DNA from: a virus
Lineage: Duplodnaviria > Heunggongvirae > Uroviricota > Caudoviricetes
DNA length: 42,469 nt
Virus record (IMG/VR): IMGVR_UViG_2541047705_000011
Reading direction: 5' to 3' (one strand)
A program made the translations under genes and the position numbers. Positions 1 to 13,726 of the stretch are shown here, one piece after another; the stretch's first letter is position 1, and each line of letters starts with the position of its first letter. The notes under the pieces were generated by a model, which saw only the letters and a list, made by a program, of their open reading frames with translations, made no database searches and was not told where the DNA came from.

Positions 1-516
1 ATGAAATTTAAAAAATGTCTTCTGCCTGTGGCAATGTTAGCGTCATTCACTCTGGCAGGATGCCAGTCAAATGCTGATGATCATGCCGCCGATGTTTATC
101 AAACCGATCAACTGAATACCAAACAAGAAACTAAAACCGTTAATATTATTTCCATTCTTCCCGCAAAAGTTGCCGTAGACAACGCCCAAAATAAACGGAA
201 CGCACAAGCCTTCGGCGCGCTTATTGGCGCTGTCGCTGGCGGTGTTATCGGCCACAACGTCGGGTCTGGCAGCAATTCCGGAACGACGGCAGGTGCAGTT
301 GGCGGCGGAGCTGTAGGCGCGGCAGCGGGTTCTATGGTGAATGATAAAACCTTAGTGGAAGGTGTTTCTTTAACATATAAGGAAGGCACCAAAGTGTATA
401 CCTCCACCCAGGTGGGTAAAGAGTGCCAGTTTACGACAGGTTTAGCCGTTGTTATTACCACGACGTATAACGAAACGCGTATTCAGCCAAATACCAAATG
501 TCCTGAAAAGAGCTAA
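1..516 (+). CDS. Glycine-zipper outer-membrane lipoprotein (YcfJ/17-kDa-antigen-like); host or conversion gene
   Basis: ORF track; signal peptide with lipobox LAGC; Gly/Ala-rich GAxxGxxxG zipper; starts at window edge. Confidence 0.6.
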   Translation: MKFKKCLLPVAMLASFTLAGCQSNADDHAADVYQTDQLNTKQETKTVNIISILPAKVAVDNAQNKRNAQAFGALIGAVAGGVIGHNVGSGSNSGTTAGAVGGGAVGAAAGSMVNDKTLVEGVSLTYKEGTKVYTSTQVGKECQFTTGLAVVITTTYNETRIQPNTKCPEKS

Positions 517-531
517 TAATCAGGAGGAGTC

Positions 532-1071
532 ATGAAGAAAGTTTTTCTTTGCGCCATCTTAGCCTCCTTAAGCTATCCGGCTATCGCCTCATCATTGCAG
601 GATCAACTCTCGGCTGTCGCAGAAGCGGAACAGCAAGGTAAAAATGAAGAGCAAAGGCAGCATGACGAATGGGTCGCGGAGCGCAACAGGGAAATCCAGC
701 AAGAGAAGCAACGTCGCGCAAACGCCCAGGCCGCGGCTAATAAAAGAGCGGCAACGGCAGCAGCGAATAAGAAAGCTCGTCAGGATAAACTGGACGCCGA
801 AGCCACTGCGGACAAAAAACGCGATCAAAGTTATGAAGATGAGCTACGTAGCTTAGAGATTCAGAAACAAAAACTGGCGCTGGCGAAAGAAGAAGCCCGC
901 GTCAAGCGCGAAAACGAATTTATCGATCAGGAACTGAAGCACAAAGCTGCGCAAACCGATGTGGTGCAATCTGAAGCTGACGCAAACAGAAATATGACTG
1001 AAGGCGGTCGCGATCTGATGAAAAGCGTGGGTAAAGCAGAAGAGAATAAATCAGATAGCTGGTTTAACTAA
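532..1071 (+). CDS. Secreted charged coiled-coil protein, unknown function
   Basis: ORF track; RBS AGGAGG 6 nt upstream; N-terminal signal peptide; Lys/Glu/Ala/Gln-rich. Confidence 0.55.
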   Translation: MKKVFLCAILASLSYPAIASSLQDQLSAVAEAEQQGKNEEQRQHDEWVAERNREIQQEKQRRANAQAAANKRAATAAANKKARQDKLDAEATADKKRDQSYEDELRSLEIQKQKLALAKEEARVKRENEFIDQELKHKAAQTDVVQSEADANRNMTEGGRDLMKSVGKAEENKSDSWFN

Positions 1072-2696: not shown

Positions 2697-3087
2697 CGTC
2701 TTTTCTCCCCGGAATTAACTCGCGTGGATTATCGGAACGGTGATAGAGCCATATACCAATACGCACAGCGACAATTGCTGACACGAATGCGCCTGCAGAG
2801 AAAACAATCCCTTTTTCAAAAGAGTCCTGCGTGATGGTAGGGATCAGGCTGGCTATGCCGATAAGAATTGATGCTGCTGGTTTGTAAAAGAGAAGGCCGC
2901 AAAGAAAGCTGAGCATCGACAGGAGCACCCGGCGACGGATGGGGTACTCTACTGCAGAGGTAACAAAAATTACCGCCCCAGCCAAAGCCCCTAAAGCAAC
3001 CTCCGGAGGGACACCTGCAATAACTGCAGCAAGAGAACCAAAACTAAGCAACTGATTTAATTGCTCACTTGTTACTTGAGCAGACAT
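2683..3087 (-). CDS. Holin
   Basis: 134 aa, multiple TM segments, charged C-terminus; RBS AGGAG 6 nt upstream; first gene of lysis cassette. Confidence 0.65.
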   Translation of the reverse strand: MSAQVTSEQLNQLLSFGSLAAVIAGVPPEVALGALAGAVIFVTSAVEYPIRRRVLLSMLSFLCGLLFYKPAASILIGIASLIPTITQDSFEKGIVFSAGAFVSAIVAVRIGIWLYHRSDNPRELIPGRKDDGNA

Positions 3088-3368: not shown

Positions 3369-3395
3369 CCCGCAATATTTTGCGGGCTTTTTTTT
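3369..3395 (+). terminator. Hairpin plus T8, canonical only in plus orientation, at tailspike 3' end
   Basis: CCCGCAA-TATT-TTGCGGG then C and T8; the T-run overlaps the tailspike stop codon; no plus-strand CDS upstream. Confidence 0.45.
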
Positions 3396-6300
3396 AACGT
3401 TCTTCCAGAGACTGAACCCGCTCTTTTATCTTATCCATTTCTCTGCGCTGCCATGCTGCCTCGATATAGAATAAGAGATCAGGTCTGACCCCCCATCTAG
3501 ATCCTGCTGGCGTTATTTCAACGCGCTCAATGATGTCTTCCATTACCATCACTGGATTATCATCCTCATCAACAATGATGCTCCCGTCATTATCAGTCAG
3601 CGGCATTTCCCTTTGGCCAGTAATGACGTCATCATATACTGCGGGATAATCGTCATAGCAAAGAAAGGCATAGCGGCATGTTGTGCTTTCTTCTTCCATG
3701 AGTCCGTGAGAAATAAGAACATCACGAAGTTGCTGCGCGATTACACCATGATGTATCCTCGCCCCTTCTTCCCCCTTTATAGCGACAGCGTTCAGCCATT
3801 TATAAGCGATATACCTGACGTCACCCCAGGCATCCAGCAATGCTTCGTCAGGAGAGACCGGCTCTGTCTTTAATGTTCCGTCACTGGTAACCACAGGATT
3901 GGAGCCAAGATAAACTGTCGAGAACCTGTTTCCCGGACCACCAAGAGCATTTACATTATCAAGATAAGGTTTAACATCTCCGTTCTCAAAAAGATGTTCG
4001 AGTGCGTTATATACCGCGCGACGTGGAGTACTGCTTCCGGAACCATGCAACGTTATCATTGCACCATCTGCTGAAGACGTTGTTTCACCTCCGCTAACGA
4101 TTAATCTCTGAGCGGTAACATCATCAGACGGTACTTTCTTCGCAATAATGGCGTAATTACCCTCAAGTTTGACTTCCGCGCGAACTTGTCCTGATGTACC
4201 TGCATGGACAGTCAGTGACTGGACGGCAACATCATCTGTGAAATCAACGGGTACAGGAACCGTCCTCACGCCTGACGTCGACATAAAAGTAGGAAGCGTT
4301 CTGTTAGGAGTGGCTCCGTAGACAAAATCCCTTGAAACAAATTCTTCCTGTTTAATTTTCACCCTGAAACAATACAAATCAGCCGGGTGACCATCGTGAA
4401 CATAAGGATATTTTCTGTTGTTATCCCCTATGCTCCATGGGTTTAGAAAGTCTTCCCCACCGAAAATGTAGTACAGCCAGTTGTCTTTGATACAAACTGA
4501 ACCAACACCAACCGCAGAGTTAACTATTCCGCCCTGATAAATCTGATCAGTAACATTAACCCACTCTACATTATCCAGACTCCACTCATTGACGTTAACT
4601 CTGGTCATAAATGTTCTTGGATAATTTCCTGCATAACGGTTATCAGGTTCTCCTCCTTCCCACTCACCAAATGCGCGCTCACTGCCAAAAATAATCAGCT
4701 CATCGCCAACTTTGGCAAAAGGAAGGTTTGAGTGATGAACATTATTTGGGAAGCGAAGAGAATTCCATGATGTACCTAAATCAGAGCTTCTGTGCAATGA
4801 ACTACCGGGTTGAGTACTTAATGTCCCCCTGGTCGTCAGATACAGAATGCCATCATAATATTTTACACATGGCTCAGATGCATTCGCCTCATATTCTGCA
4901 GGTATGCGTCTGCGAACAAAGCTACCAGGAGAACCGAAAGCATCAGAGAAATAGAGTATCCCAAGCTCGCGTGGACCAATATCACCATTATGGTAGCCAA
5001 CAGCAAAACTGTTATCGCTAATCGTCGCAAAACTGTGAATCTCAGTAACAGGAGTGCTTCCGTCAACAAAAGAAGGAATAGTTCCAAGACTGGTTTTTCT
5101 CCATGGTGACGAGTGAAATGATGTACCAAAACTCCAGTATCTACCCTCGTTATTCTGATCCACATCCTGGGTATTTTGCGTCGTAACTGTAAAAGTATTT
5201 TTATCAATAACAGTAGTCACCGTCATATTCCCGGTAACACCTGTAACACCAGAGTTTGAGAAGTTGACAAAATCACCAGCAAATAATCCGTGATCAGTAA
5301 TGCGAATATAAGCGACTTGCTGATTTGCTGCTTTCGTTATACCACCATAAACGCGAAGGCTGCGACTCATTGGGCGATCCCACAACTCTGCAACCTGCAG
5401 TTTATTTCCGCTCACGGTCCGCGTCTCAATTACAGCAAAAAGGCGATTTCTGACAACCCCCATACTCATGCAGTGATAGTTAACTGTGGGATAGTTTTCA
5501 TGTAAATCTGTAAGCCATTCCGGCGTTGTCCAGGTCTTCCCGTCATCTCCTGAGCGAACCCATGCAACATGGAGGTTATTTACACCATGGCGGTCTCCAG
5601 CCATAAAAGGCGCATAGATGACATTGTCATATACAAACGTTTTATCCTGCGTCCAGGCGTTGTACCACGGTGTATCTGTAATTTTAAATAACTCTCCCTG
5701 GATAAAATCTTCAGAAGCATAAAAAAGAGGCTGGCCCGGTATTCTCTCAAATAAAAAACGAGCATTTTTAAATCGACTGACATCCGGAAGAGTTGATACT
5801 TTAAAAGTAAGCCCTAATCCGTCAATTTTATAACCTGGAGATGAGGCTTCAAGGCACGCGCTTATTGCAGTGGAATCGTCATTTATACCATCACCAACAG
5901 CTCCAAAATCTTTGGGGCTAATAGCATCACGCATTTTATCCTGGAACGTTCGGTACACAGCCCCAGAACCATACTGAATAAACCAACCAAAACCACCAAC
6001 AACCCCGGCGATTGCAGCATCGACATAATTACGCATTGAGCGATTATTTACAGCGTCCTGCTCAAATGATGGATCTGCAAGGTTAGAAATTTTGTTTTGC
6101 TTTGCATCGTAATATTTTGCAAGCAAAGATGGTTTCATCAATGCACGTCTGAACCACCCAAAACATTGCTGGATCAGCATCGTCAGGTAGTCAAAGGCAT
6201 CTTCATGCACTTCGGGGAAAAATTTTCCCTGATTGCGAAGGTCTGTCTCCTGCACTACATCAAGCACACGATCTATCGTAATTCGCCATCCAGTAGCAAG

Positions 6301-6513
6301 CGGAGACGGAAGAACCACAGAACCGCCACTATAAGTGCCCGCCCCAGTTACCGTATAACCGGTATCCAGAACCAATTCTGTTACGTTCCCGTTCAGGTCA
6401 GACACCTGAACAACCAGGTCTGATTTTCTGAAAATTCGAAAAGTATACGGAAACGATGTCGTAACGCCGTTACCGGTGTATTCGTTGTGGTCAACTTCGG
6501 TTGAGACCGTCAT
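3394..6513 (-). CDS. Tailspike, endosialidase-like (endo-N-acetylneuraminidase) with C-terminal intramolecular chaperone
   Basis: 1039 aa; N-terminus has T7 tail-fibre-like pattern YxGxG..F..F..LVV; two Asp-boxes SGDDGKTW and SSDLGTSW; C-terminal SDGTLK and HHGVIAQQLRDV resemble the autocleaving chaperone of endosialidases. Confidence 0.7.
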   Translation of the reverse strand: MTVSTEVDHNEYTGNGVTTSFPYTFRIFRKSDLVVQVSDLNGNVTELVLDTGYTVTGAGTYSGGSVVLPSPLATGWRITIDRVLDVVQETDLRNQGKFFPEVHEDAFDYLTMLIQQCFGWFRRALMKPSLLAKYYDAKQNKISNLADPSFEQDAVNNRSMRNYVDAAIAGVVGGFGWFIQYGSGAVYRTFQDKMRDAISPKDFGAVGDGINDDSTAISACLEASSPGYKIDGLGLTFKVSTLPDVSRFKNARFLFERIPGQPLFYASEDFIQGELFKITDTPWYNAWTQDKTFVYDNVIYAPFMAGDRHGVNNLHVAWVRSGDDGKTWTTPEWLTDLHENYPTVNYHCMSMGVVRNRLFAVIETRTVSGNKLQVAELWDRPMSRSLRVYGGITKAANQQVAYIRITDHGLFAGDFVNFSNSGVTGVTGNMTVTTVIDKNTFTVTTQNTQDVDQNNEGRYWSFGTSFHSSPWRKTSLGTIPSFVDGSTPVTEIHSFATISDNSFAVGYHNGDIGPRELGILYFSDAFGSPGSFVRRRIPAEYEANASEPCVKYYDGILYLTTRGTLSTQPGSSLHRSSDLGTSWNSLRFPNNVHHSNLPFAKVGDELIIFGSERAFGEWEGGEPDNRYAGNYPRTFMTRVNVNEWSLDNVEWVNVTDQIYQGGIVNSAVGVGSVCIKDNWLYYIFGGEDFLNPWSIGDNNRKYPYVHDGHPADLYCFRVKIKQEEFVSRDFVYGATPNRTLPTFMSTSGVRTVPVPVDFTDDVAVQSLTVHAGTSGQVRAEVKLEGNYAIIAKKVPSDDVTAQRLIVSGGETTSSADGAMITLHGSGSSTPRRAVYNALEHLFENGDVKPYLDNVNALGGPGNRFSTVYLGSNPVVTSDGTLKTEPVSPDEALLDAWGDVRYIAYKWLNAVAIKGEEGARIHHGVIAQQLRDVLISHGLMEEESTTCRYAFLCYDDYPAVYDDVITGQREMPLTDNDGSIIVDEDDNPVMVMEDIIERVEITPAGSRWGVRPDLLFYIEAAWQRREMDKIKERVQSLEER

Positions 6514-9681: not shown

Positions 9682-9843
9682 ATGAAAAAAGCATTTGCTG
9701 CACTGTTCGTTTTGTTGTCTCTGGTAGCTTCAACTCAGGCCTTTGCCGGTCGTTGTCAGCACGACAGCGATACTGCCGCTGACGGCTCCCGCTGCGGTGG
9801 GCGTTCTGCGGATTCCCGCCCGGGTGGCGGTGGCATTCGTTAA
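9682..9843 (+). CDS. Small secreted Gly/Arg-rich peptide (53 aa)
   Basis: Start at MKKAFAALFVLLSLVASTQAFA (signal peptide); putative promoter TTGACG-N16-TATAGA upstream; ORF-track N-terminal extension discarded. Confidence 0.45.
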   Translation: MKKAFAALFVLLSLVASTQAFAGRCQHDSDTAADGSRCGGRSADSRPGGGGIR

Positions 9844-9849
9844 AAACAA

Positions 9850-9865
9850 GGCCGCGAAAGCGGCC
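9850..9865 (-). terminator. Hairpin GGCCGC-GAAA-GCGGCC, terminator for lipoprotein gene (minus), weaker for plus
   Basis: GNRA-type loop; on minus strand followed by TTGTTTTTA. Confidence 0.55.
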
Positions 9866-9866
9866 T

Positions 9867-9878
9867 GTGACATGTCAC
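9867..9878. repeat. Perfect 12-bp palindrome GTGACATGTCAC (copy 1 of 3)
   Basis: Overlaps lipoprotein stop codon; identical copies at 28357-28368 and 30808-30819. Confidence 0.8.
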
Positions 9879-10255
9879 GCAACGCAATTATTACCGCGCC
9901 ATGTAACATTTTTAATAATCTTATCAGCACCAAACTCAACGTAAACAGAGCAACTGAAATGGAGTGTATAACCGCCATCAGTTGTTGCGTATGTGTTTGA
10001 ATATATAGTATTACCAATTAGATTAGACGTAGTATTATACGTTGTGGTTTGTGGTACGTTATAACTACCAGAGCTTGAGTAAACATACACTCTGTTTCCA
10101 TCTGGAGATGTAAGCTCTCCCTGAGGATACCCCCACTGCTGAACCATTGCGTCTATACTCTGCCCGCGCCACGTAAGCATATTTCTTTCAAACTGTGCAA
10201 CTGACTGGCATCCAACGAGAAGCATAAATCCAAAAATCAAAAATACTTTTCTCAT
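9875..10255 (-). CDS. Lipoprotein (126 aa), candidate superinfection-exclusion/moron protein
   Basis: Start MRKVFLIFGFMLLVGC (lipobox); RBS AGGGG; Thr/Ser/Tyr/Asn-rich mature part; IS1 lies 66 bp upstream of its start. Confidence 0.6.
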   Translation of the reverse strand: MRKVFLIFGFMLLVGCQSVAQFERNMLTWRGQSIDAMVQQWGYPQGELTSPDGNRVYVYSSSGSYNVPQTTTYNTTSNLIGNTIYSNTYATTDGGYTLHFSCSVYVEFGADKIIKNVTWRGNNCVA

Positions 10256-10375
10256 AATTACCCCTATCATGGAAAAACAGCACCAATCCACAAATTAACT
10301 AGTTATTTTATTATTCTTCCGGTGATGCTGCCAACTTACTGATTTAGTGTATGATGGTGTTTTTGAGGTGCTCCA

Positions 10376-10651
10376 GTGGCTTCTGTTTCTATCAGCTGTC
10401 CCTCCTGTTCAGCTACTGACGGGGTGGTGCGTAACGGCAAAAGCACCGCCGGACATCAGCGCTATCTCTGCTCTCACTGCCGTAAAACATGGCAACTGCA
10501 GTTCACTTACACCGCTTCTCAACCCGGTACGCACCAGAAAATCATTGATATGGCCATGAATGGCGTTGGATGCCGGGCAACCGCCCGCATTATGGGCGTT
10601 GGCCTCAACACGATTTTACGTCACTTAAAAAACTCAGGCCGCAGTCGGTAA
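10376..10651 (+). CDS. insA: IS1 InsA
   Basis: Sequence recognised as IS1 InsA ([32 protein letters not shown]...). Confidence 0.95.
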
Positions 10652-11073
10652 CCTCGCGCATACAGCCGGGCAGTGACGTCATCGTCTGCGCGGAAATGGA
10701 CGAACAGTGGGGCTATGTCGGGGCTAAATCGCGCCAGCGCTGGCTGTTTTACGCGTATGACAGTCTCCGGAAGACGGTTGTTGCGCACGTATTCGGTGAA
10801 CGCACTATGGCGACGCTGGGGCGTCTTATGAGCCTGCTGTCACCCTTTGACGTGGTGATATGGATGACGGATGGCTGGCCGCTGTATGAATCCCGCCTGA
10901 AGGGAAAGCTGCACGTAATCAGCAAGCGATATACGCAGCGAATTGAGCGGCATAACCTGAATCTGAGGCAGCACCTGGCACGGCTGGGACGGAAGTCGCT
11001 GTCGTTCTCAAAATCGGTGGAGCTGCATGACAAAGTCATCGGGCATTATCTGAACATAAAACACTATCAATAA
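10570..11073 (+). CDS. insB: IS1 InsB reading frame (expressed as InsAB' fusion by -1 frameshift)
   Basis: Sequence recognised as IS1 InsB; slippery TTAAAAAACTC upstream in the InsA frame. Confidence 0.9.
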
Positions 11074-11117
11074 GTTGGAGTCATTACCTATTCTTCCGAA
11101 CAATACAATTCCGAATA

Positions 11118-11240
11118 CTACAAAGCCGAACCATGCCGCTGCACGCAACAGAGATTCCAATTGAAACCCATTTTTATCAAAATGTATGAATAGCATAAAA
11201 ACGCTGCACATATTAGTACAATAAAAGTTATTTGAACCAT
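11118..11240 (-). CDS. Small hydrophobic peptide (40 aa) with strong RBS, candidate membrane peptide
   Basis: AAGGAG 5 nt before ATG, directly after stop of upstream virion gene; MVQITFIVLICAAFLCYSYILIKMGFNWNLCCVQRHGSAL; below the ORF-track size cutoff. Confidence 0.4.
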   Translation of the reverse strand: MVQITFIVLICAAFLCYSYILIKMGFNWNLCCVQRHGSAL

Positions 11241-11251
11241 CATATCTCCTT

Positions 11252-13726
11252 TTATTGCGGAGTGACATCCTGTGGTCGCCACCAGTATGTCTGGTTAAAC
11301 TCTTTCTTCGAACGTTGCTCCATTTTACGCAAATAGCCTGGTGAAAAATACTCCTGCATCTGGTTAAAGATCATGTGATCGAGAGCCGCCTTCAAGTACC
11401 AGAGATTCGCACCAGGCATCAAACCTTTCCCCAGCTTCACCAGATCACCACCAGTCTGCTCACTCTTCCCTTCCACAGCATTTAACGGTATGCCCTGAGC
11501 AATCTTCACTACGTCATCAACCAGACCAGCTACCGGGCCAAGCATCGACGCCAGCGCGCCGCTTCCGTACCTAGTGTGATCTGACAATAAAAAGTCACCG
11601 TAAAGGCCAAGACCACCACCTTTCAGTAGAGCACCAAGCCAGAATTTTGCGGCATCTTCTCCTGTCATCTCTCGAGAATTACGACCAGACGCAAGGTCGT
11701 TAAGTTGCTGCGACAAAGCGCCAAGAATGGTCGTACTGGCAATAAACGTCGCAATATATGCCGCACGCCCACCAGCAGACGGCATACCCATAGCGCGTGA
11801 CCAGTGACGCATAACAACCGAGATAGGGAACGATTTAAACAGGAAAACACTTCTCGTTAATTCACCTTTCCATGTTCCACGCTGAATACCAGAACCGGTT
11901 ATCAGTTGCTCACGTGCTCCCGGTGTAATAACAGCCATATCAACTTCTTCAGTTACGGCACCGAGCAGTTTACGCATTGCCTCAAATTTCACGCGTTCAG
12001 GCTCACCAAGATGTTTAACTGCTGAATCAGGGATACGCATAATGCTTTCCGGTGTCAGCATCGTATTATTACCGTTCCCCCAGTCCTCCTGTTTCGCCAG
12101 CTTCCATACGCTCCAGTCTGTGTCAGTAATCCCTTTGCTTTTCAGGATACGAAAATCAGAGTCATCGAGGCTACGAAGGTCTGGTGTCCGTGACACTACT
12201 TCTCCCAGGCTTCCCATCATGGTTACGCCATAGGCGCGCTTGTGCGCATCTGACCATGCTGTAAGCCCACTGGCACGCATTACCGCCGTTGCCGCCCAAC
12301 GAGACACTGACGGCCCCATATTATCCATCGCCCAGCGGTTAACGCTGCCAAGTAGAGATTCCATCGCCAGACCAGCGCGGCGCGCCCGCGCAAGTTCTGT
12401 ACGGTTCGTTGGGTCCATAGCTTCAAGCTGGTTGCGGAATAACTGGTTCATTGGAAGGTTGGTAACCTTCGCAGACAGATACATGGTTCCAAGATCAGAG
12501 AACGATGACAGCAACGCGGATCCGAGTCTGCTGGCAACCAGCCAGTTGCGGATATTGTCAGACCATCGCGCGATGTGCGGATTCGCTACAGGCTGTGTCT
12601 TTCCGGAAATAAAGTTGTACAGATTCTCTGTGTTGTTCGCCAGCCGCTCGACTTTACCGGTTTTACTCGGGTTAGCTGTTGCCGTTTCTGCCTTCACCTG
12701 ATCAAGAAGAGAGCGGAAAACATGATCGGGGTTTGGGCCATATGTTTCCACCAGTGCAATATCTTTACTGATACCTTCCAGGTGACCGACCATGATTTCC
12801 CATAGAGAGCGATCGCCATAAAGTTGCTGATATTGCAGATAGGAATCTGCATCTTTGAAATGTATCTGTCGTGATGCATTACCACGGTTAGCACGTGCGC
12901 CGGAAATTCGCATTCCGGTATCAGTAAGCTTATTCAGCCCACCAGTAGCGATCGTGTTATAAGCCTCTCCAAGAAATGAAGACAACTCGGCATCGTTCAT
13001 CAGTTGTCCATCGGCTCGGATATAATATTTGCGATCCAGCTTACCTATAACATCGCTAACCCACTTATCCTTTGATACTGCCCCAACCTTTTCCATAGAA
13101 TGATGTTGAGGGATCCCCCAGTTTTCGAGATAGCCAATGTCCCCACCAGCATCATTAAACCGGCGGCGCAGCAGCTCTGTAACTTCTCTCCACGCCTTAG
13201 CACCGTTTCTTGCTTTAGCATTGCCAGTATTTTGCCCCCGCATTTCATATACCAGGTCACGTACGCCCGCTTCATCTTCAAACAGACCAAAAAAGCGAGG
13301 ATCAACTGCTTCGAATGCCTCCTGCAATTGACTCAATGCATAATCACGAGTGGCTTTTGTTCTGGACTCAACAGAGAGGAAATTCGATTTACCGTCTGCA
13401 TTAAAAGCAATAGTACGGTTAAGAGCGCCAAGTTTCCCATCAGCCCCTTGATAGCTATTGATAAATTTATCCAATCTCTGACGCGCGGCTATAGTGAGAG
13501 CCACACGACGTTTCTTTAATGCCGCTTCTCGCTGTAATTCTTCAGATGCCAATTGTGCTGCTCGATATAGCCGCTCTGATTCGGAAAGTTGTCGCCACGA
13601 CATAGGGTCATCACGAGCAATGGAGCGCATATTTCGATAAATGCGGTCTTCAATGTTCTGTATTTCTCGCGCCGTTAACATGCGCTGCGCCGCCTGCTGA
13701 ACCGCTTGTATACATTCCTGTCTCAT
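11252..13726 (-). CDS. Large internal virion/ejection protein (824 aa)
   Basis: ORF track; last large gene of virion operon, in the position of podovirus injection proteins. Confidence 0.6.
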   Translation of the reverse strand: MRQECIQAVQQAAQRMLTAREIQNIEDRIYRNMRSIARDDPMSWRQLSESERLYRAAQLASEELQREAALKKRRVALTIAARQRLDKFINSYQGADGKLGALNRTIAFNADGKSNFLSVESRTKATRDYALSQLQEAFEAVDPRFFGLFEDEAGVRDLVYEMRGQNTGNAKARNGAKAWREVTELLRRRFNDAGGDIGYLENWGIPQHHSMEKVGAVSKDKWVSDVIGKLDRKYYIRADGQLMNDAELSSFLGEAYNTIATGGLNKLTDTGMRISGARANRGNASRQIHFKDADSYLQYQQLYGDRSLWEIMVGHLEGISKDIALVETYGPNPDHVFRSLLDQVKAETATANPSKTGKVERLANNTENLYNFISGKTQPVANPHIARWSDNIRNWLVASRLGSALLSSFSDLGTMYLSAKVTNLPMNQLFRNQLEAMDPTNRTELARARRAGLAMESLLGSVNRWAMDNMGPSVSRWAATAVMRASGLTAWSDAHKRAYGVTMMGSLGEVVSRTPDLRSLDDSDFRILKSKGITDTDWSVWKLAKQEDWGNGNNTMLTPESIMRIPDSAVKHLGEPERVKFEAMRKLLGAVTEEVDMAVITPGAREQLITGSGIQRGTWKGELTRSVFLFKSFPISVVMRHWSRAMGMPSAGGRAAYIATFIASTTILGALSQQLNDLASGRNSREMTGEDAAKFWLGALLKGGGLGLYGDFLLSDHTRYGSGALASMLGPVAGLVDDVVKIAQGIPLNAVEGKSEQTGGDLVKLGKGLMPGANLWYLKAALDHMIFNQMQEYFSPGYLRKMEQRSKKEFNQTYWWRPQDVTPQ

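Follow-up and report, generated by a model that had tools for sequence, protein, structure and literature searches.

A single gene for a small membrane protein with two helices, broken by a one-nucleotide deletion and most likely a decaying accessory gene, is the highly probable explanation for the locus behind the gp17-like virion gene in the 42,469 nucleotide stretch of DNA analysed here (the window), which is an epsilon15/phiV10-like (Uetakevirus) prophage. The original prediction had placed a hydrophobic 40 amino acid peptide gene at this position; the observation is confirmed and its interpretation is partly supported. In prophages of this type, a short gene encoding a membrane protein with two helices is located directly behind the gp17-like gene and is followed by the terminator of the late operon. 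In the lineage with the K1 endosialidase tailspike, this small gene comes from a family of 52–54 amino acid proteins that is otherwise intact and mostly found in Klebsiella prophages. A ribosome starting at the ATG at 11240 would translate 19–20 genuine codons (helix 1) and then 20 out-of-frame codons until the stop at 11118, and the loop and helix 2 persist in the -1 frame, in which gene finders read a 62 amino acid ORF. The gene would be a decaying, dispensable occupant of an accessory ("moron") slot in this lineage.

The upstream gene (11252–13726, minus strand, from the ORF list) encodes a gp17/phiV10p20-like virion protein of 824 amino acids, of internal or ejection type, which matches the PHROGs entry phrog_684 "virion structural protein" with E = 0. 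At the DNA level it is 97–100% identical to its counterparts in phiV10 (phiV10p20), ZX5 and E. coli prophages. It had been described as the last virion gene, which is not strictly the case since the tailspike gene is encoded further downstream (6513–3394). Its TAA stop codon (11254–11252, minus strand) abuts the Shine-Dalgarno sequence AAGGAG of the small gene, read in the sequence at 11246–11251 on the minus strand, and a GGAG-type site is found in the corresponding position of orthologues. Two ATG codons follow in tandem, one at 11243–11241 with a spacer of 2 nucleotides and one at 11240–11238 with a spacer of 5 nucleotides; the latter is the start chosen in the original prediction, which had correctly reported AAGGAG 5 nucleotides before this ATG and right after the upstream stop codon. 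The motif alone was rejected as evidence for a gene: AAGGAG-N(2-9)-ATG occurs 5 times in the window versus 3.1 times expected by chance, which is no enrichment. The significance of the start lies in its position and synteny and not in the motif, and the strong ribosome binding site and start that had been claimed are indeed those of a conserved small gene, at the orthologous start codon. In epsilon15/phiV10-like prophages the small two-helix gene is translationally coupled to the gp17-like gene.

The 40-codon ORF itself (frame A, 11118–11240, minus strand) exists as predicted: it runs from 11240 to the TAG stop at 11120–11118, its product is MVQITFIVLICAAFLCYSYILIKMGFNWNLCCVQRHGSAL, and residues 1–23 are strongly hydrophobic (Kyte-Doolittle means over 15 residues of 2.1–2.6), the tail not. 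That it is unannotated also holds true, since frame A is absent from a collection of 15 billion proteins and thus no pipeline has ever called it. The 220 nucleotides between the gp17-like gene and the downstream lipoprotein gene carry no annotation in the IS1-free sequences of APEC O1, IAI39, CE10 and ZX5. Searches of Pfam, NCBIfam, PHROGs and PADLOC with frame A, with the overlapping frame B, with the reconstruction described below and with its homologue P0001 gave no credible match.

Using a hypothetical fusion of frame A and then frame B as query against the protein collection, we found single-frame proteins that cover 96–98% of the query, including P0001 (54 amino acids, MSHIIFIVIISGAFLCYSYAFDKKGFSLEPQARAAAWFGFVVFGLVLLGRLVGN) and P0002 (52 amino acids). 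These two and P0057 (52 amino acids) are each intact and encoded in a single frame, and phmmer with the frame-fused query gave E = 1.5e-13 against the P0001-type family. The homologues align with frame A up to ...CYSY and with frame B from FDK(N/K)GF on. The P0001 cluster comprises 28 members, which occur on hundreds of contigs and come mostly from Klebsiella, with some from Salmonella and E. coli. The genes for P0001 and P0002 are syntenic with the window gene, starting 8 nucleotides after the orthologue of the 824 amino acid gp17 (L004, L005), and the starts align without gaps at 11240 (MVQITFIV, MSQIIFIV and MAQIIFIV).

The DNA alignment locates the break. Where the Klebsiella sequence, and intact relatives in general, read TAT GCC TTC GAT, the window reads TAC A-T TTT GAT, so that a single base is missing in codon 20 or in the T run (11183–11179; frameshift site TACATTTTGAT, 11176–11186, minus strand). 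Adding one T yields an ORF of 53 amino acids, MVQITFIVLICAAFLCYSYIFDKNGFQLESLLRAAAWFGFVVFGIVLFGRIIK, which is 68% identical to P0001. The window copy thus resembles the P0001-type family over the full length once the base is restored and is located right behind the 824 amino acid gene (stop at 11252, start at 11240), but the 1-nucleotide deletion at 11183–11179 leaves it without an uninterrupted frame for both helices. Judged by its sequence, it is a disrupted member, a putative pseudogene allele, of this family of 52–54 amino acid proteins. The AlphaFold2 model of P0001 has helices at residues 2–23 and 30–53 (pLDDT 74) and the hydropathy profile of the 53 amino acid reconstruction has two hydrophobic segments; according to these models the ancestral product is a helical hairpin of 53 amino acids with two predicted transmembrane helices.

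The pattern of conservation switches frame at the same point. Codons 1–19 in frame A (MVQITFIVLICAAFLCYSY, 11184–11240, minus strand) form a conserved 5' part, and codons 21–51 in frame B (FDKNGFQLESLLRAAAWFGFVVFGIVLFGRI, 11089–11181, minus strand), which encode the loop and the second helix and of which the last 9 nucleotides are an IS1 target duplication, form a conserved 3' part. Upstream of the break, the differences between frame A and Klebsiella P0001 are distributed over the three codon positions as 3/4/13 (p = 0.011), with 13 of 19 residues identical. Downstream of it, frame B differs from P0001 at 9/3/20 positions (p = 0.0009, 23 of 33 residues identical) and from P0057 at 8/2/21 positions (p = 0.0001, 22 of 32 residues identical). 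Since the third-position bias changes frame across the break, frame A has been conserved over codons 1–19 and frame B from codon 21 on. The tail of frame A does not resemble the homologues, its local alignment score being 17 compared to 121–126 for the frame B part. The frame switch thus identifies the tail as out-of-frame read-through and the two ORFs as halves of one gene. The original prediction had described one transmembrane-like helix with a polar tail and preferred frame A over the 86 amino acid frame. Both statements stand for the first part, because helix 1 (codons 1 to 19 or 20) is genuine coding sequence and frame A is the conserved one in codons 1–19, and both fail for the rest, because the last 20 residues before the TAG stop are out of frame after the 1-nucleotide deletion and frame B is conserved over the 3' two-thirds of the locus. 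Synonymous-site variation in favour of the other frame had been named as evidence against the prediction, and exactly this was found downstream of 11179, with codons 1–19 conserved in frame A.

These data also bear on the idea that the 40 amino acid frame is a true gene in its own right, encoding a membrane-active peptide with a single helix, and that the other frame is spurious. The strong ribosome binding site with its optimal spacing, the orthologous start codon and the hydrophobic N-terminus would fit such a gene, as would the fixation of the allele in all copies sampled, from which the peptide is likely synthesised. However, its 20 C-terminal residues have no homologue and conservation there is in the other frame, its intact relatives are single-frame proteins of 52–54 amino acids, it has no family match in Pfam, NCBIfam, PHROGs or PADLOC, and in 13 contigs (variant P0006) the predicted ATG is changed to ATA. 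We regard this explanation as very improbable.

Frame B is the frame that gene finders call. In the window it is an ORF of 86 amino acids (11268–11008, minus strand) which starts inside the 824 amino acid gene without a Shine-Dalgarno sequence and enters IS1, as the original prediction had noted. In IS1-free sequences it encodes 62 amino acids ending in ...FDKNGFQLESLLRAAAWFGFVVFGIVLFGRIIK, frame A still has 40 amino acids, and each frame contains a hydrophobic helix. The chance that the frame B ORF is the real gene (62 amino acids without IS1, 86 amino acids here) is in our judgement close to nil. It is the only one of the two frames present in databases, where the 62 amino acid protein occurs on 117+ contigs of the protein collection (P0003, DAM51381.1), and its 33 codons at the 3' end are under purifying selection. 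But its start lies within the gp17-like gene and lacks a Shine-Dalgarno sequence, its first approximately 29 codons overlap gp17 or the conserved frame A segment and are dissimilar to the homologues, and the intact homologues begin at the frame A ATG.

The difference between 62 and 86 amino acids is due to the insertion element, which replaced the last two codons and the stop codon. IS1 (768 bp, insA/insB, 10321–11088, plus strand) is flanked by 9 bp target duplications (TATTCTTCC) at 10312–10320 and 11089–11097 and interrupts the ancestral small gene at GGA AGA ATA, within its third-last codon; the lipoprotein gene is located downstream of the insertion. On the other side of the element, the two final codons and the stop codon (ATA AAA TAA) can be read at 10303–10311 (minus strand), and the IS1-free sequence of APEC O1 (L003) reads ...GGA AGA ATA ATA AAA TAA. 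In the window, ...IK-stop is exchanged for 26 residues encoded by IS1, which results in the 86 amino acid ORF. None of the 5,426 complete E. coli genomes contains the IS1 junction at this site, but two database ORFs (P0005 and P0009) do. By a polar effect, the insertion probably cuts the lipoprotein gene off from transcription of the late operon.

The frameshifted allele is present in every copy of the lineage that was sampled. It was found with its run of four T in 34 of 34 complete E. coli genomes that contain the sequence (identity of at least 99.4%), and all matches span exactly 172 nucleotides and therefore contain no indel; the single variant inspected among them has a C-to-A substitution elsewhere in the region. 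Two phage records (ZX5 and Phi05_1387 B) and 18 of 18 contigs (11 viral, 7 metagenome) carry it as well; the contig search used a DNA pattern allowing T4 or T4+N, so that one extra base would also have matched. An intact allele of the E. coli type was found neither by exact protein look-up or word-seeded search among 15 billion proteins, nor by an HMM search run exhaustively over 1.84 billion representatives, nor with the DNA patterns on the contigs. The HMM search returned only four clusters, showing that the family is narrow: P0002, P0057 as a third intact type, P0056, a miscalled ORF containing an intact copy of the small gene, and P0058. In P0058 (L030, 675–983) a gp17-like C-terminus continues in frame into the loop and helix 2 of a diverged homologue of the small protein; its contig is a prophage remnant of 2.4 kb, and the degenerate allele is an independent one.

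Variation within the lineage is low. The 22 loci compared differ at 0–3 positions over 681 nucleotides, making the lineage nearly clonal, and protein-level variants are few. In one of them, P0006, the substitution removes the orthologous start (11238–11240) and leaves only the ATG with the 2-nucleotide spacer. On one metagenome contig (L006, 4001–4135), a deletion of 26 nucleotides re-fuses frames A and B into an ORF of 44 amino acids (P0004), from which most of helix 1 is gone. We count in favour of a broken gene that the viable temperate phage ZX5 has the identical frameshifted allele (PMC9782041) and that P0058 appears, from its sequence, to be another degenerate allele elsewhere. Weighing against a broken gene, fixation of the frameshifted allele in all sampled copies could mean that the lineage tolerates the split form or even makes use of it. 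The strong ribosome binding site has also been kept, which suggests that the 40 amino acid peptide is probably still made, and a truncated product may persist in this lineage. As to decay, relaxed constraint is not demonstrable in a nearly clonal lineage with 0–3 differences per 681 nucleotides.

A use for the split form could be regulatory recoding, in which a -1 slip of Lys-tRNA on A_AAA_A (11177–11171) or of Leu-tRNA on T_TTG would produce the two-helix protein at a low level. The deletion requires exactly a -1 shift, an A_AAA_A run is located 3 codons downstream of the break, the downstream frame is open and unchanged in a fixed allele, and the 26-nucleotide deletion (P0004, L006) re-fuses the frames; one third of random deletions, however, would restore the frame. 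Moreover, frame A (TAC ATT TTG ATA AAA ATG) does not contain an X_XXY_YYZ heptamer and would permit only a single-codon slip on A_AAA. A stimulatory structure is also lacking (MFE -19.5 kcal/mol, z = -0.36 compared to shuffled sequences): the only hairpin is badly spaced, being located about 11 nucleotides past the A run where 5–9 nucleotides are needed, and a Shine-Dalgarno-like stimulator upstream is not readable. The T4 and A5 runs do not reach the length that transcriptional slippage requires. The diverged relatives are all single-frame, so the two-frame arrangement is not conserved. Compared to programmed -1 sites of the dnaX, IS1 or tail-chaperone type, the locus has neither the heptamer nor the stimulator nor a conserved two-frame layout, and we consider recoding very unlikely. 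Taken more broadly, the notion that the split gene is alive, either because an inefficient -1 slip on A_AAA_A yields a small, limited amount of the full two-helix protein and so throttles a membrane-active exclusion factor or because the 40 amino acid product (helix 1 and a Cys-rich tail) has become newly functional in the K1-specific lineage, is still unlikely. A gene broken by the deletion is the reading we prefer.

The position behind the gp17-like gene differs between prophages in its content. Similarity to phiV10 ends exactly at the stop codon and ribosome binding site of the 824 amino acid gene, which places a module junction there. In the window, the small gene is followed by a lipoprotein gene of 126 amino acids with the lipobox LLVGC (9875–10255, minus strand; phrog_3716; 37 homologue clusters), for which AlphaFold2 predicts a BamE/BLIP-like fold (pLDDT 85), and by the intrinsic terminator closing the late operon (9840–9866, minus strand). 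This terminator is shared with phiV10, in which it follows phiV10p21, a 46 amino acid protein annotated with "two predicted transmembrane helices"; in the IS1-free sequences of APEC O1, IAI39, CE10 and ZX5 the phiV10-type terminator follows the 126 amino acid lipoprotein gene. In all Uetakeviruses examined, an ORF of 46–64 amino acids with two helices is the first one after gp17 and precedes the late terminator (phiV10p21, SPN1S_0020, 65FD PIGZ_00047 and epsilon15 gp18), and these proteins fall into at least three groups without detectable homology to one another. Loci at which this slot was inspected include L001 4459–4599, L008 2958–3098, L009 5327–5521, L004 4001–4165 and L033 2501–2881.

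Salmonella prophages contain the lipoprotein alone in this slot, showing that the small gene is dispensable, and Klebsiella contains the small gene alone. In L031 and L032 the slot consists of the gene for P0057, a gene for a membrane protein of 99 amino acids and a homologous lipoprotein gene; in L031 (3180–3479) the 99 amino acid protein, which has a hydrophobic segment, is encoded between the small gene and the lipoprotein gene, giving a three-gene envelope cassette. An obligate pairing of small gene and lipoprotein was ruled out, because the two co-occur here and in L031/L032 but each is found alone elsewhere (Salmonella, Klebsiella). Whatever its content, the slot is always closed by the late terminator. 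The differing contents point to a variable and dispensable accessory position, consistent with a tolerated frameshift.

The tailspike gene (3394–6513, minus strand) encodes a complete K1 endosialidase with N-terminal domain, beta-propeller, beta-barrel, stalk and C-terminal chaperone. A K1 endosialidase tailspike is likewise found in the temperate phage vB_EcoP_ZX5 (PMC9782041). The combination of a K1 endosialidase with an epsilon15-like chassis indicates a prophage lineage specific for the K1 capsule, and this lineage was seen in APEC O1 and IAI39 as well as in K1 strains, CE10 (O7:K1) being one example. Other small ORFs of the window are located outside the slot. A convergent ORF at 9682–9843 (plus strand), 53 amino acids in RefSeq (WP_000708858.1), has a signal peptide and a mature part rich in Gly, Arg and Asp, and ends at the same bidirectional terminator as the late operon. 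Beside the lysis cassette lie an ORF with a glycine-zipper/TraT-like region (1–516, plus strand), which begins at base 1 and may be cut, and a DUF5384 ORF (532–1071, plus strand); these two are possibly cargo for lysogenic conversion, or else host genes of the flank.

The chief value of the result is for annotation, and it raises no new biological question. In dozens of K1 E. coli genomes, RefSeq/PGAP annotates nothing in the 220 nucleotides, and the spurious 62 amino acid ORF is what other pipelines predict; the proper label would be a pseudogene, disrupted by a frameshift, from a family of small membrane proteins. In addition, the analysis defines a variable slot whose occupants are unrelated two-helix mini-proteins, a BamE/BLIP-like lipoprotein or both. 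The slot proteins are reasonable candidates for envelope-level phage exclusion.

The intact family probably forms an envelope-modifying helical hairpin in the inner membrane. Its most plausible role would be to exclude incoming phages that are related, a weak proposal made by analogy because the gene order resembles the sieA region of P22. Against this guess, a PADLOC match for the small gene was not obtained. No usable sigma-70-like independent promoter for expression from the prophage was found, since the sole promoter-like match overlaps the start codon and cannot serve the small gene. The small gene did not resemble a class II or pinholin-like holin in family match or location, as there was no holin match in Pfam or PHROGs and the lysis cassette (3087–1290, with holins at 3087–2388, endolysin at 2563–1769 and DUF2514 at 1772–1290) is located 8 kb away.

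Among known families, the 52–54 amino acid proteins annotated as "hypothetical protein" (P0001, P0026–P0039, for example WP_302121623.1, and P0057) are closest to the window gene, sharing its position, about 68% identity after repair and the helix-loop(DKxGF)-helix organisation; unlike them, the window copy is split over two frames by the 1-nucleotide deletion and has lost its last two codons to IS1. PhiV10p21 and SPN1S_0020 (phrog_7892) and epsilon15 gp18 (phrog_29212) have the same slot, with the same position and the same terminator, the size class of 46–64 amino acids and the two-helix architecture. However, homology between the phiV10p21 family and the window gene is not detectable (hhalign probability 6%; no PHROG match in any frame or reconstruction) and was rejected for phiV10p21 (phrog_7892), making these proteins positional analogues only. 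The superinfection-exclusion protein SieA of P22, an inner-membrane protein of 162–164 amino acids with three transmembrane segments that is expressed from the prophage (PMC10883804), is three times larger than the window reconstruction. With about 53 amino acids and two helices, the latter does not have the size and topology of a SieA-type protein (approximately 160 amino acids, three transmembrane segments). T4 Imm and the HK97 gp15 moron, whose genes are found among the virion genes or at their end, are small membrane proteins which keep the DNA of related phages from entering; they have no sequence relationship to the intact family and would illustrate, by analogy, the kind of mechanism only. 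On the P22 map, sieA directly follows the ejection-protein genes and precedes the antirepressor region and the tailspike gene, and the order in the window (gp15–17, small membrane gene, BRO-N/AntA-type gene on the other strand, tailspike) mirrors this arrangement.
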